NCBI GenBank assembly: GCA_942493105.1
Contig: OW818668.1
Location: 600,001-632,000, forward strand
Direction: 5' to 3'
DNA from: an uncultured Erysipelotrichaceae bacterium
Lineage (GTDB): Bacteria > Bacillota_I > Bacilli_A > Erysipelotrichales > Erysipelotrichaceae
Length of the DNA stretch: 32,000 nucleotides
This document shows positions 20,745 through 27,974 of this stretch, piece after piece (position 1 is the first letter of the stretch; the number at the start of each line of letters is the position of its first letter). The position numbers were made by a program, and so were the translations under genes. The notes under the pieces are model-generated. The model did no database searches. It worked only from the letters and a program-made list of their open reading frames with translations, and had not been told where the DNA came from.

Positions 20745-21716
20745 TTAAGGTTGAGTTACTTTTGCGTGACTATGATCGATGCTTATGGCATAGAACAAAG
20801 CATTGACCGAGGTCACTCCTCGATATTCCTCTTGCCCATAAGCGAAAATAAAACTCTCTTTCTCTTCAACCCCAAATTGAATGTTGATTTGATCTATGAA
20901 TTGCCCCAAAACCAATGATGGCTTTACTGTAAACTTTTGTTCTCTAAATGTAACCTGTGCATTTAAGGTATTTGATACAATTTTCGAGCTTGAATCTAAA
21001 CTGCCTGTCGCTCTGATTTGACCTGTAAGTTCAAGCGTTGTGGATTCGTTGTTGGCATAATATGTTTCCCCATCCATGATATCCCACGTTAAGTTATACA
21101 CACCATTATAGGTATATGTCGTATCATGTGTACGTTCTGCTACCTCAAAGACCCATCCTTGAGGATAATCATAAGATCCAACAACTCTGATGGTTCGATA
21201 ACTGATATAGGGTCCTTCTGATACTGTGTATGCATATGTAAAGCTTGATAGGCCATGGGGTAAGTCAAGGGTTTGATCTATAAATAACACGTCTTCGATC
21301 GGATAAGGATTCTTATTGATGCCTTCAAACCAACGTGCTGTTTGAAGCAAAGCTTCAGAACTGGTAGGAACTTTCGTAACTGCTGTTACATTGGTTGCTG
21401 AAAAATAGAGGTTACTCAAATTCCATTTGTTGAACTGATAGTCATAAAGCAAGGTATATTTTCCACTTAAAGTACATTCTTCATTATTTAAAGTTAAAGT
21501 CCCATTGATGATCCAGTGAGAATCTGTTTTCTTCTCAATGTTGTATACATTTTTATCAATGTTTATGACATTGAATTGTCCATCAAAAATACTGAGCACT
21601 GCCGCTCTTATTGTTTCATCTTTTAGATCAGGGATCTCTGTTTCAGGTTTTGCTGGATCACATGCACTTAAACTTAGTAACATGACCAAGCATAAGCACA
21701 GTCTAGTTGCTTTCAT
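20745..21716 (-). CDS. Lipoprotein of unknown function (paralog B)
   Basis: I prefer the ATG at 21714-21716 (MKATRLCLCLVMLLSLSAC, lipobox L-S-A-C), with SD gagg (21724-21727) and -10 TATACT (21730-21735). The track start at 21767 adds a non-signal extension. Confidence 0.7.
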   Translation of the reverse strand: MKATRLCLCLVMLLSLSACDPAKPETEIPDLKDETIRAAVLSIFDGQFNVINIDKNVYNIEKKTDSHWIINGTLTLNNEECTLSGKYTLLYDYQFNKWNLSNLYFSATNVTAVTKVPTSSEALLQTARWFEGINKNPYPIEDVLFIDQTLDLPHGLSSFTYAYTVSEGPYISYRTIRVVGSYDYPQGWVFEVAERTHDTTYTYNGVYNLTWDIMDGETYYANNESTTLELTGQIRATGSLDSSSKIVSNTLNAQVTFREQKFTVKPSLVLGQFIDQINIQFGVEEKESFIFAYGQEEYRGVTSVNALFYAISIDHSHAKVTQP

Positions 21717-21774
21717 GAATATTCCTCGCAGTATAAGTTTAAATCTTATCGTTAGGAAAGTAAACAACTTGAAT

Positions 21775-21789
21775 AAAAGACAGGTTTTC
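21775..21789 (-). terminator. Distal half of the rubrerythrin terminator hairpin, split by the IS insertion
   Basis: aaaagacaggt (21775-21785) is the exact complement of acctgtctttt (23313-23323). tttc (21786-21789) is the former loop and contains the TSD copy TTC. Confidence 0.75.
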
Positions 21790-21828
21790 TAAACTGTACC
21801 CCATGTAAAGGACACGGAAATAAAAACC
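21790..21828. repeat. IS terminal inverted repeat (orfB-distal end)
   Basis: taaactgtaccccatgtaaaggacacggaaataaaaacc versus the reverse complement of 23271-23309, taaactataccccatggaatagacacgaaaagaaaaacc. Confidence 0.8.
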
Positions 21829-21858
21829 GCTTAAGATCGACAGAAATGTCGGTCTTTT

Positions 21859-22782
21859 TTATGTTTGTAGCTGAATTTGTGGAATAACTGCCGGTAGATA
21901 TCGAATATTGGACCTTGGATTTGAGAGAACCTCATCGTATTCATGAGGGGTCATTCGATGTAGATCCCATTGAGGACGATCGTAATTATAGTAGTTGATG
22001 TATGAAATGAGGCATTCAGCCAATCGATCGTAAGAATTGATTTTGGAGAGGTCCAGTTCTGTTTTAAGCACGGCGTAGAAGGATTCCTGAGGGGCGTTAT
22101 CCCAACAGTTTCCGCGCCGAGACATCGACTGAGTAATGTCGTGTTTTGAGAGAAGATCCTGATAGTCGATGCTGGTGTAGTGACTCCCCTGATCAGAATG
22201 AAGGATGAACTTCATATGCAGTTCACCGTGATAATTCTGTAGAAGTTGATTCACCGTATCGATGACGAAATCCAATTCAAGTGACCCAGACAACTGCCAA
22301 GCCAAGATCTTCTTGGTCGTGGCGTCTTTGATGGTGGATAAATACGCTCGCTTCCCGTTCCCATACTTGATATACGTGATGTCCGTCAATAAGACCTTCT
22401 TGGCTGCGCCTTGCGAGAAATTTCGATTGAGGATGTTACTGAAGACTTTGTTGCTGTGCTGAGCTTTAATGATTGCGATGATCGGGTTCGCCTTGCGGAT
22501 CGGACAGAAGAGTTGATATTTTCTCATGAGTCGCCGGATCTTTTTGAGGTTCATATTTATGCCGTAATCCCTCGTAAGCCTCATTTTAATCTGTTTTGCG
22601 CCTTTTTTGAACCCTTTGTGGTCATAAGCCGCTTTGATCGCGATAAAATCGAGCTTGTCTCTCATTTCTCTCTCACCCATCGTCAATCTTCGCTTCTTAT
22701 AGGCGTAGTATCCCGATCGTGATACTTTGGCTTGGGTACACATATACTTAATGTCCAGTCGGTTCTTCCTTCGACCTTCCAT
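21859..22782 (-). CDS. IS3-family transposase OrfB (DDE/rve integrase core), expressed as an OrfAB fusion by -1 frameshift
   Basis: DDE triad context: LLTDITYI, LHSDQGSHYTS, GNCWDNAPQESF. The frame stays open upstream to the slippery site. Confidence 0.9.
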   Translation of the reverse strand: MEGRRKNRLDIKYMCTQAKVSRSGYYAYKKRRLTMGEREMRDKLDFIAIKAAYDHKGFKKGAKQIKMRLTRDYGINMNLKKIRRLMRKYQLFCPIRKANPIIAIIKAQHSNKVFSNILNRNFSQGAAKKVLLTDITYIKYGNGKRAYLSTIKDATTKKILAWQLSGSLELDFVIDTVNQLLQNYHGELHMKFILHSDQGSHYTSIDYQDLLSKHDITQSMSRRGNCWDNAPQESFYAVLKTELDLSKINSYDRLAECLISYINYYNYDRPQWDLHRMTPHEYDEVLSNPRSNIRYLPAVIPQIQLQT

Positions 22783-22823
22783 TGCCCAAATGATCTCAAA
22801 TTTCTTTTCTGCGCCGAGTTGCT

Positions 22824-23222
22824 TTATTCCCCCCTTTCCAGCGCTTTCAGTTTTTTTAAGAATTCGTTCTCCTGTTCAAGGTATTCATTTCTATCTTTCA
22901 GATACCGGTTCTCTTCTTCAGGACTACTGAATGTCATTTTCTTCGGTCGTCCTGGTGATTTGAGTCGCTCAAATCCTTTCGGTCGCTTCGCTTGTAGCCG
23001 CGCTCTATGAAAGAGGGATTCCAGTCGCTCTTTCCCAAACAACTCCGAGTCGATACTAAGCTCTTTTAAGATCTGTTTCTGTGGCTTTCCTTGCCTACTT
23101 TCACTGAGGATGATTGCCTTGAATTCCGGCGTAAACTGAACTGAATTTTCTGTCGCACTTAAAACATATTTATTGTTTCTTAATCTTTCAATTGCTTCTG
23201 GACTAAATTTCACTTTGGCCAT
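22824..23222 (-). CDS. IS3-family transposase OrfA (HTH / leucine-zipper)
   Basis: 132 aa, HTH-like N-terminus, C-terminal heptad-rich NRYLKDRNEYLEQENEFLKKLKALE. SD ggaggt upstream. Confidence 0.9.
   Translation of the reverse strand: MAKVKFSPEAIERLRNNKYVLSATENSVQFTPEFKAIILSESRQGKPQKQILKELSIDSELFGKERLESLFHRARLQAKRPKGFERLKSPGRPKKMTFSSPEEENRYLKDRNEYLEQENEFLKKLKALERGE
22851..22857 (-). other. Programmed -1 ribosomal frameshift heptamer A AAA AAA
   Basis: Minus strand reads tta aaa aaa ctg in the orfA frame. Shifting -1 gives act gaa agc ..., which runs directly into the orfB frame (..EIIWAMEGRRKNRL). Confidence 0.7.
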
Positions 23223-23270
23223 CTTTTTACCTCCTGTTTAGTATATTAAAACCCCATAGAACTGTCACGA

Positions 23271-23309
23271 GGTTTTTCTTTTCGTGTCTATTCCATGGGG
23301 TATAGTTTA
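23271..23309. repeat. IS terminal inverted repeat (orfA-proximal end)
   Basis: Reverse complement matches 21790-21828 at 33 of 39 positions by hand alignment. Confidence 0.8.
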
Positions 23310-23323
23310 TTCACCTGTCTTTT
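23310..23323 (-). terminator. Proximal half of the rubrerythrin terminator hairpin, split by the IS insertion
   Basis: TTC (TSD copy) followed by acctgtctttt. Lies 8 nt downstream of the rbr stop codon on the minus strand. Confidence 0.75.
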
Positions 23324-23331
23324 AACTTTGT

Positions 23332-23871
23332 TTAGTAGTTTCTGACATCCATTGAGAAATGAGACTGAGGTTCTCCACATACTGGACAAATCTTTGGTGC
23401 TTCTGTGCCTTCGGATTGATATCCGCACACATTACATTCCCAAACCACTTTTTCATCTTTTTTGAAGACTTTGCCTTCTTTAAGGTTGGCAAGAAGATCG
23501 TTATAGCGTTCTTCATGACGTTTTTCTATGATGGCAACTTGTTCCATCTGGAAAGCGATCTTATTGAAGCCTTCAGCTTTGGCTGTTTCAGCAAATTCTT
23601 TATACATAGTTGTCCATTCATAGTGTTCACCAGCAGCAGCATCCACTAAATTAACAGCAGTTGTTGCAACTTCTCCACCATGGAGCGCTTTGAACCACAA
23701 GAACGCATGTTCTTGTTCATTGCGGGCTGTCTCTAGGAAGAAGTCTTCCAGTTGTCTGTAGCCTTCATGACGGGCTTTAGCAGCATAATAGGTATACTTA
23801 TTGCGGGCCATTGATTCCCCGGCAAATGCAGCTTCTAAATTCTTTTCTGTTTTTGAACCTTTCAAATCCAT
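23332..23871 (-). CDS. rbr: Rubrerythrin
   Basis: Ferritin-like di-iron helices ([35 protein letters not shown]) plus a C-terminal rubredoxin-type CNVCGY...CPVCG. The ATG at 23869-23871 has SD ggag; the track start at 23919 is an unsupported extension. Confidence 0.9.
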
Positions 23872-26717: not shown

Positions 26718-27342
26718 AGGCTTTAACCTTCTTCAAGACAGCCTCATAGGCTTCTTTCTGAACGGTTTTTATCTCCTGATCCGCATTGACCACAACGATT
26801 CTATCGCTGAAGCGACGTTTTACTTCTTGGTAGCCTTCAACGACCAATTCATGAAAATTGATTTTCTCTTGGTCTAAGCGATCTAGAAACTTGCGTCCAG
26901 CAATACGATCTAGTCCTGCTTGGGCTGATAAATCAAGATATACGGTCAAATCAGGCAAGTAGTCATCAATTGCGAAACGATTGATCATATAGACTTCATC
27001 AAATCCTACGCCTCTGCCAACCCCTTGATAAGCCAAGGAACTGTCTACGAAACGATCACAGATTACAATCTTGCCGGCTTCTAAAGCAGGGAGTATCTTC
27101 TCGATCAAATGTTGTCTACGACTGGCAGCATATAAAAGCACTTCCGTTTTAACATCCATCTTGGTATTTTTTGGATCCAAAATGACATGGCGGATTTGTT
27201 CAGCAATGTCGACACCCCCAGGTTCTCTGGTATGGATGATATCATAACCCAAGTCTAGTAACTGTTGGACCACATAACTGCTGACTGTGGTCTTTCCGCT
27301 GCCGTCGGGACCTTCAAATGTGATAAATAGACCTTTTTTCAT
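26710..27342 (-). CDS. tmk: Thymidylate kinase
   Basis: P-loop FEGPDGSGKTT, DRFVDSSLAYQG. Confidence 0.95.
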   Translation of the reverse strand: MKKGLFITFEGPDGSGKTTVSSYVVQQLLDLGYDIIHTREPGGVDIAEQIRHVILDPKNTKMDVKTEVLLYAASRRQHLIEKILPALEAGKIVICDRFVDSSLAYQGVGRGVGFDEVYMINRFAIDDYLPDLTVYLDLSAQAGLDRIAGRKFLDRLDQEKINFHELVVEGYQEVKRRFSDRIVVVNADQEIKTVQKEAYEAVLKKVKAYV

Positions 27343-27407
27343 CGAGCTTACCCCGTGTTTTCATTATACCAAAACTCATGGTCCCCTTCAAACAAACATA
27401 GGGGTCA

Positions 27408-27416
27408 TGTTATACT
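27408..27416 (+). promoter_or_regulatory. Extended -10 element (TGtTATACT) placed for a leaderless nudF mRNA
   Basis: tgttatact at 27408-27416. Only atcccc (no SD) separates it from the ATG at 27423. Confidence 0.35.
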
Positions 27417-27422
27417 ATCCCC

Positions 27423-27974
27423 ATGAACTTGATCGAAAAGAAATTATCTGGCAATCTTAAATTTAAAGGAAAGATCATTGAGGTCCATCATGATGAGATC
27501 TTATTGCCTAATGGTGATCAATCCATGCGTGAGATCGTTAAACATCCTGGTGGCGTTTGTATTGCGGCACAAAATGAAAAAGGTGAGTTTTTATTGGTTG
27601 AACAATTTCGTTATGTCTTCGATCAGGTCTTATTGGAATTTACGGCTGGTAAATTAGAAAAAGATGAGAATCCTTTAGATGCTGCCAATCGAGAACTTAT
27701 TGAAGAGACAGGCTATGAAGCCTTAGAAATGATTCCTCTAGGTACGATTTATCCTTCTCCTGGTTATTTAGGTGAAATCATTTATCTCTACTATGCCCCA
27801 AAAACAAAGTTCGTCGGTCAAAAACTCGATCATCATGAATTTCTAAACGTTAAAACGTACCTTTTAGATCAATTGATAGAATTGGTTATGAATGATCAGC
27901 TCAACGACTCAAAAACCATCGCTTTGATCATGAAGTTATCACAACTGAAGCCATCACTTATAAAAGAAATCTAG
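27423..27974 (+). CDS. nudF: ADP-ribose pyrophosphatase (NUDIX hydrolase)
   Basis: Nudix box GKLEKDENPLDAANRELIEETGY. The N-terminal beta domain is typical of NudF/YqkG. Confidence 0.85.
   Translation: MNLIEKKLSGNLKFKGKIIEVHHDEILLPNGDQSMREIVKHPGGVCIAAQNEKGEFLLVEQFRYVFDQVLLEFTAGKLEKDENPLDAANRELIEETGYEALEMIPLGTIYPSPGYLGEIIYLYYAPKTKFVGQKLDHHEFLNVKTYLLDQLIELVMNDQLNDSKTIALIMKLSQLKPSLIKEI

Follow-up and report, generated by a model that had tools for sequence, protein, structure and literature searches.

An unnamed IS3-family insertion sequence in the rubrerythrin terminator of an Erysipelotrichaceae bacterium, and the terminator-hairpin preference of its clade

The choice of a target by its structure is poorly understood for DDE transposases, and few cases are available: IS1397 and ISKpn1, which use repetitive extragenic palindromes (REPs), and IS1272, which uses terminators with another chemistry. 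IS1397 and ISKpn1 are IS3-family insertion sequences (ISs) of enterobacteria that insert into REP palindromes (also called palindromic units, PUs), a specificity set by their transposases (PMC1525189). Here, we analyzed a stretch of 32,000 nucleotides (hereafter the window; all coordinates refer to it unless a genome position is given) from an uncultured Erysipelotrichaceae bacterium, in which an IS3-family element (21790-23309) lies within the palindrome that follows the rubrerythrin gene (rbr). An initial annotation of this DNA had named IS1397 and ISKpn1 as precedents, and the literature confirms them for insertion into REP/PU palindromes; the loop of the palindrome is reportedly where both insert. 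We consider it very probable that the window element is an intact and probably active IS, and that its clade selects palindromes of the intrinsic-terminator type as targets.

The window element and its relatives resemble IS1397 and ISKpn1 in family, in their short target-site duplication (TSD), in their extragenic palindromic targets, and in a specificity determined by the transposase. However, the targets of IS1397 and ISKpn1 come from one repeated family (REP/PU within bacterial interspersed mosaic elements), with its own PU type for each IS, whereas those of the window clade are unique terminators with unrelated stems. The eighteen TSD-positive sites described below share no stem consensus, and hence their targets do not come from a repeated palindrome family.

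Terminators are also used by two other kinds of mobile DNA. IS1272 and TnSha1 of staphylococci, which belong to the IS1182 family, target terminator hairpins in both orientations and without primary-sequence specificity (PMC4923244). Their transposases are of an unrelated family, and they enter the stem or its base with blunt cuts, delete part of the hairpin, and leave no TSD (PMC4923244); in contrast, elements of the window clade make a clean 3-bp duplication at the dyad (the symmetry center of the palindrome) and nothing is lost. Class C (IIC) group II introns that home to terminators have been mentioned as well (PMC7923331). Such introns are retroelements which insert just past the hairpin, on one strand and via an RNA intermediate, and are not DDE elements acting at the dyad. 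Their homing to intrinsic terminators is said to involve recognition of the stem-loop as a structure. The IS1447 group was considered as a further precedent and rejected, because the work on it deals with +1 transcriptional slippage and not with targets (PMC6211511). Our literature search found no paper on generic-terminator targeting by IS3-family elements or by the window clade, a result that leaves room for a description in ISfinder or TnPedia.

At the window locus, the sequence on the left of the IS reads ...AAAAGACAGGTTTTC (21775-21789) and that on the right TTCACCTGTCTTTT (23310-23323). Direct reading confirmed the proposal of the initial annotation that removal of 21790-23309 together with one TTC rebuilds a hairpin after rbr. 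The rejoined flanks give AAAAGACAGGT-TTTC-ACCTGTCTTTT, and RNAfold predicts a 12-pair hairpin with a 4-nt loop for either strand. The left half of the split hairpin (21775-21786) consists of the arm AAAAGACAGGT, which is the reverse complement of 23313-23323, and the first loop base, T; it is followed by the first TSD copy (TTC, 21787-21789), which represents three of the four loop bases. On the other side of the element, the second TSD copy (TTC, 23310-23312) is followed by the right half of the hairpin, ACCTGTCTTTT (23313-23323). The rbr gene (23332-23871, minus strand) encodes a Pfam Rubrerythrin domain (1.2e-22) and a rubredoxin-like domain. Its stop codon is at 23334-23332, and the 8 nt previously given as its distance from the hairpin proved correct when counted to the first A of the hairpin. 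The structure had also been described as an 11-bp stem followed by a T-run, which is right in substance but counts the Ts twice, because the runs of four As and four Ts already lie within that stem. For the RNA terminator, we prefer a description as a 7-bp stem (GACAGGU/ACCUGUC, four G-C pairs) with a GAAA loop and a UUUUAUU tail. These are the features of an intrinsic terminator, and termination at this site is predicted from them. The window IS entered the GAAA/TTTC tetraloop of this terminator.

The joined flanks were searched against 40 relatives, and an uninterrupted hairpin after rbr was found in six congeneric species that lack the IS. One of them (G007) is syntenic on both sides of the site with 85% identity, and its empty site reads AAAAGACAGGTTTTATCCTGTCTTT; another (G002) has the identical stem-loop GACAGGT-TTTC-ACCTGTC. 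The hairpin is a single-copy terminator that has been kept at this locus in seven species, and the intact form predicted for IS-free alleles is present. The same alleles bear on the idea that the inverted repeats at the flanks are part of the element or its product, and not target DNA. This idea may draw on the fact that an unanchored inverted-repeat search extends past the IS ends into the flanks. However, the flanks are different at every site, the symmetry is broken by direct 3-bp repeats precisely where the conserved IS tips lie, and the intact hairpins of the six IS-free species already refute it, so that we give it next to no credence.

The complete genome (2.03 Mb) contains three copies of a sibling IS, which share 99% identity with one another and 80% with the window copy. 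The IS ends and the 3-bp TSD are in identical register in all four full-length copies (sibling TSDs AAA, AAT, and GCT), and all four empty sites fold as perfect hairpins made of an A-run, a stem, a loop, and a T-run. Three copies lie in the loop: copy A (the window element) after rbr, copy B after a gene for a 603-amino-acid lipoprotein, and copy C after a gene for a 795-amino-acid protein. Copy D lies in the 3' arm of the hairpin after tuf, at the border between stem and T-run. In each of the four cases, the 3' end of the upstream gene is 23-31 nt away and this gene has the same orientation as the transposase. The claim of hairpin-loop targeting made from the window copy is therefore upheld for the hairpin, but not for strict placement in the loop, from which copy D deviates. 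Loops closed by stems of 10 or more pairs make up 0.22% of the positions in the genome, or 1.1% of those outside long open reading frames (ORFs), whereas three of the four full-length copies lie in such loops; chance is thus excluded as the source of the hairpin placement in this genome.

Several details of these copies are worth recording. Copy D (G000:C1:447536-449054, locus L004) is 23 nt past the stop codon of tuf, which encodes EF-Tu, and the arm it occupies belongs to an 11-bp terminator stem. It is 99.8% identical to copy C (G000:C1:330468-331988, locus L003), and orfB is split into ORFs of 115 and 153 amino acids in both, suggesting a shared break. Because copies C and D occupy different terminators, each with its own TSD, this defective form has apparently been mobilized, with the intact copy B as the presumed source of transposase in trans. 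In addition, there is a single 68-bp miniature (G000:C1:1912088-1912155, locus L005), in which the hairpin of the IS left end carries two IRL-like tips (TGAACTATACCCC...GGGGTATAGTATA; IRL, left terminal inverted repeat). It has the TSD TTT, and the hairpin whose loop it occupies, AAACCCAC...GCGGGTTTTTT, is weak and terminator-like, with 7 of 8 stem positions paired. Thus, the ends assigned to the window copy, the 3-bp TSD, and a rebuilt hairpin recur at the three siblings and the miniature.

We then analyzed relatives in other genomes. The survey covered 80 loci encoding relatives of OrfB, the transposase protein, with IS ends anchored on the tip motifs TAAA[AC]TG[TG]ACCC... and ...GGGT[AC]CAnTTTA; both ends could be mapped for 56 copies, which were scored. 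As a control, each left flank was paired with the right flank of every other copy, giving 3080 pairs. A junction-spanning stem of at least 8 pairs was detected in 22 of the 56 copies compared with 3.0% of the controls (binomial P ~2e-19), and a folding energy dG <= -10 in 23 of 56 compared with 7%. At the hairpin sites, whose stems range from 8 to 21 pairs, the 3' ends of genes point at the IS, and the flanking genes are often convergent. A fixed insertion orientation for the clade was also considered, but had to be rejected, as both orientations occur in the wider set (in unidirectional gene contexts, two insertions were co-directional and three opposite).

No stem consensus was found among the eighteen TSD-positive hairpin sites, which have in common only A at positions -18 to -12 and T at +13 to +16 from the TSD center. 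The symmetry of these runs about the TSD center indicates that the insertion point is the dyad, within a few bases. It is conceivable that the targeting is real but directed at this symmetric A-run/T-run geometry in duplex DNA, that is, at a bend or a minor-groove width about 12 bp to each side, with the stems as a by-product. The runs are indeed the only conserved bases and are symmetric about a TSD that is itself A/T-rich, and a two-fold symmetric transpososome which cuts duplex DNA 3 bp apart fits better than an attack on a single-stranded loop. On the other hand, the site L044 is a 13-pair palindrome with only interrupted A/T runs (AAATAAG/CTTATTT), the ISEcB1 site in Escherichia coli REL606 has a poor T-run on one side, and the range of stem lengths means that the spacing of the runs is not fixed. 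We regard an A/T geometry without a role for the stem as the main alternative, although an unlikely one.

Mapping of the target types on an OrfB tree revealed clear differences among clades. All eight scored copies of the window clade (Erysipelotrichaceae, Coprobacillaceae, and allies; support 100/100) are hairpin-targeted, as are 7 of 11 copies of a clostridial clade with elements of ~1.46 kb and 7 of 10 of a Bacillus/Enterococcus-type clade with elements of 1.75-2.1 kb, compared with only 1 of 22 in a well-supported derived clade with elements of 1.55-1.9 kb. The elements insert at the dyad, with a 3-bp stagger, and the palindromes that they enter lie between A and T runs and are unrelated in sequence; this preference is phylogenetically inherited. 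A very improbable alternative is that insertion is random and survives only at harmless sites, such that selection has enriched terminator loops. Standing copies have certainly passed through selection, and loops between convergent genes are plausible neutral sites, but a base rate of 1.1% outside long ORFs contrasts with the placement of the copies in this genome and in the window clade, the sister clade is under the same selection and shows almost no preference, and selection does not explain why the duplication is centered on the dyad within a few bases. Because the contrast between clades goes beyond what survivorship alone would give, the terminator-hairpin preference is encoded by the element.

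The comparison of clades is also relevant to a host process at terminators as the driving force, such as paused or released RNA polymerase, supercoiling between convergent genes, or hairpins on the lagging-strand template. Many sites are located between convergent genes, and all four full-length copies in the window genome occupy the same replichore, their transposase genes being read in the direction of fork movement, although four copies are too few for a conclusion (by chance, all four would share an orientation in 1 of 8 cases). However, the sister clade lives in similar hosts without the preference, which again points to a determinant encoded by the element, and in the wider set, insertions have no uniform orientation with respect to the terminated gene. 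We judge a host-driven origin of the targeting to be improbable.

The window element belongs to the IS3 family, in which it is new and unnamed. It is 1520 bp long, with the transposase on the minus strand, and runs from TAAACTGTACCCCATG (21790-21805) to CATGGGGTATAGTTTA (23294-23309), 16-bp inverted repeats that match at 15 of 16 positions. In the transposase orientation, the former is the right inverted repeat (IRR; family consensus GTCCTTGACAnnGGGTACAGTTTA), which contains a -35-like hexamer, TTTACA, 14 nt from the tip, and the latter is the IRL, which reads TAAACTATACCCCATG on the minus strand. The product of orfB (21859-22782, minus strand) has 307 amino acids, with rve (Pfam 2.5e-20), rve_2/3, and HTH_21 domains, and scores 246.9 bits with the IS3 model NF033516 of NCBIfam (cutoff 160). 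Its motifs TDIT, HSDQG, and DNAPQE align with those of ISEcB1, and 35 residues separate the second D from the E, which corresponds to a DD(35)E core. The upstream orfA (22824-23222, minus strand) encodes 132 amino acids with an HTH_Tnp_2 domain. orfB is in the -1 frame relative to orfA and is open upstream to 22875, across a slippery run of seven As (22851-22857, minus strand; TTA AAA AAA CTG in the orfA frame), which is a candidate site for a predicted -1 frameshift fusing OrfA to OrfB.

The rve-type DDE domain, the two ORFs, and the terminal repeats with a 3-bp TSD agree with the IS3 family, to which the element had been assigned at first sight. A 3-bp TSD is also present at most of the related copies. 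Its tips read TA...TA (TAAACT...AGTTTA, with the 3'-terminal A kept), as they do in the other three full-length copies of the genome and in related clades, and not 5'-TG...CA-3' as is usual for IS3 elements; this feature is common but not universal, and the family membership therefore stands on the protein evidence. The element is the sole copy of its type in the genome, and it is 88% identical to the element in Erysipelotrichaceae bacterium UBA6182. With two intact ORFs, a perfect TSD, and no second copy of its type in the genome, the window IS is probably recent and functional.

Among named elements, ISClte1 of Clostridium tetani is the nearest one assigned by PGAP, with an OrfB 49% identical to that of the window. 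The one copy that we inspected is inserted in a palindrome of A-run, stem, and T-run, AAAGCCATGG...CCATGGCTTT, with the TSD TAG. ISClte1 has the same tips (TAAAATGTACCC...GGGTACATTTTA), a 3-bp TSD, and an IRL hairpin, but it belongs to another clade with other hosts and the loop of its target is long (14 nt). The type copy of ISEcB1 (E. coli B, REL606) occupies a hairpin loop between yfbM and nuoN, which are convergent. Its terminal repeats are homologous to those of the window IS (TGAACTGCACCCC...GGACAC versus TAAACTGTACCCC...GGACAC), the motif ACTGnACCCC...GGACAC being common to both, and its IRL hairpin is likewise followed by a T-run. In contrast, the tips of ISEcB1 are TG...CA, its TSD reads as 4 bp (CATG), its OrfB is only 34% identical to that of the window (and 60% identical to those of IS150 and ISKpn8), and its OrfA has no similarity to the window OrfA detectable by BLASTP. 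On the basis of these comparisons, the window IS is at most a candidate member of the IS150 group of the IS3 family. A literature search found no paper on the target choice of ISEcB1.

Both ISEcB1 and ISClte1 thus carry an IRL hairpin with a T-run, a feature that is prominent in the window IS (23247-23301, minus strand). On the strand of rbr and the transposase, 8 nt of the IS precede this hairpin, in which nt 9-20 form 12 pairs with nt 48-59, enclosing an inner 5-pair stem, and UUUU follows, all within the first 63 nt of the element (centroid -23.4 kcal/mol, z = -2.96). By folding of each sequence, the IRL hairpin with a T-run was found in 24 of 26 hairpin-targeted copies compared with 7 of 30 others. 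Between clades, a compensatory change turns ACCCC/GGGGT into ACCCT/AGGGT. RNAalifold recovered only 5 pairs from a MAFFT alignment of eight IRL regions, in which indels misalign the 3' arm, whereas the hairpin appears when each sequence is folded separately.

The derived clade (L055, L057, L064, L068, L069, L071, L073, L074, L076, L077, L083, and others) has the same tips but lacks the IRL hairpin. Its members have a longer 5' leader with repeats such as GGACA and GTTTTCAAAACCC, and several copies abut ORFs directly. Some hairpin-targeting relatives (L085, L088, L090, L102, L061, L051, and L096) are also larger than the window element, at 1.9-2.1 kb, or by ~0.4-0.5 kb.

The IRL hairpin is a candidate replacement terminator. 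It may supply the upstream gene with a substitute for the terminator that was split and also shield orfA from read-through, in which case the insertion would be nearly harmless to rbr. The initial annotation proposed that rbr had lost its terminator and that its transcription enters the IS. The native terminator is indeed split, but the consequence drawn from this was incomplete: rbr transcripts may stop at the IRL hairpin, ~60 nt into the IS, and not traverse the transposase gene. A promoter-like sequence upstream of orfA (23240-23268, minus strand; GTGACA-17-TATACT, with 10 of 12 consensus matches as the basis of this assignment) overlaps the 3' arm of the IRL hairpin, and the ribosome-binding site of orfA lies beyond it. 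At the other end, just past the orfB stop codon, there is a terminator-like hairpin with its T-run on the plus strand (21833-21856), which would stop transcripts that enter the IS at the IRR.

The gene downstream of the IS (20745-21716, minus strand) encodes a lipoprotein-like protein (MKATRLCLCLVMLLSLSAC...) for which Pfam gives no hit. It retains 73 bp of native upstream DNA (21717-21789), in agreement with the earlier estimate of about 70 bp. A hybrid outward promoter directed toward this gene was considered and rejected, since the -35 hexamer TTTACA of the IRR would pair with AACCTG, a poor -10 sequence. Both rbr and the lipoprotein gene are probably still expressed normally.

Regarding the mechanism, the element would transpose by a copy-out-paste-in route through a circle, like other IS3 members. 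The circle junction, IRR-3 bp-IRL, would form a promoter, TTTACA-17-TAAACT (family consensus TTGACA-17-TAAAAT). Circle-junction promoters of this kind are known for IS911 and IS2. The target itself comprises two stem arms of variable sequence around a short loop, with an A-run before them and a T-run after them, and the element enters at or near the dyad and duplicates 3 bp. Considering that the stems share no consensus and that the duplication is centered ~12-13 bp from each A/T run, the transposase may select its target by reading the shape or symmetry of DNA and not its sequence. In the targeting clades, the left end of the element itself mirrors the target, in that the IRL and its internal complement are followed by a T-run, and such a structure may be what the transposase is built to bind. 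Our leading idea is that the transposase might bind the target as it binds its own IRL hairpin. IS3-family elements tend to insert beside sequences that resemble their inverted repeats, which is consistent with this idea.

Several observations weigh against terminator-hairpin targeting or against parts of this mechanism. In the targeting clades, 30-40% of copies are not in a clear hairpin; some of these have no TSD and may be rearranged. Copy D is the one clear departure from loop insertion in the window genome. Both the targeting and the possible role as a substitute terminator are what we infer from standing copies. Hairpins and symmetric A-run/T-run arrangements co-occur in terminators, so that in silico analysis cannot tell one from the other. 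Essentially a single evolutionary transition underlies the proposed link between the IRL hairpin and target preference, which should be taken only as a lead. Finally, a 3-bp staggered cut by a DDE enzyme needs duplex DNA and is hard to reconcile with an attack on an extruded single-stranded loop.

A more general proposal can be made tentatively. A broad IS3 clade of Erysipelotrichaceae, clostridia, and bacilli, perhaps also including ISEcB1 in E. coli, might read the shape of terminator palindromes through the mode by which it binds its own left-end hairpin, and might thereby repair the terminator that it splits and make the insertion nearly cost-free. We view this as possible, but would not expect it to hold in full.

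The surroundings of the IS in the chromosome have one further feature. The cumulative GC skew of the whole chromosome has its minimum at ~620 kb. A sign change of the skew falls inside the window, where genes also turn from the minus to the plus strand at ~27340-27425 (G000 ~627.4 kb), between ORFs that end at 27342 and start at 27423. Based on these three observations, a replication origin or replichore boundary seems to lie ~4-5 kb from the IS.

The window clade extends palindrome-loop targeting from REP repeats to ordinary intrinsic terminators. This would not greatly surprise specialists, but with the comparative material at hand, the structural basis of target choice can be tested directly. 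Natural insertions of the clade are numerous and independent, leave clean 3-bp footprints, and occupy targets whose sequences are unrelated, and a sister clade that does not target hairpins is available for comparison. With this sister clade and such varied natural insertions, the determinant of targeting can be sought by domain swaps; if the proposed link is true, the clade from which the preference has disappeared together with the IRL hairpin would serve as a natural swap partner for mapping it. For genome annotation, such elements are to be expected at the 3' ends of genes, especially between convergent genes. Since hairpins insulate both ends of the IS, the effect of these elements on neighboring genes may be small.

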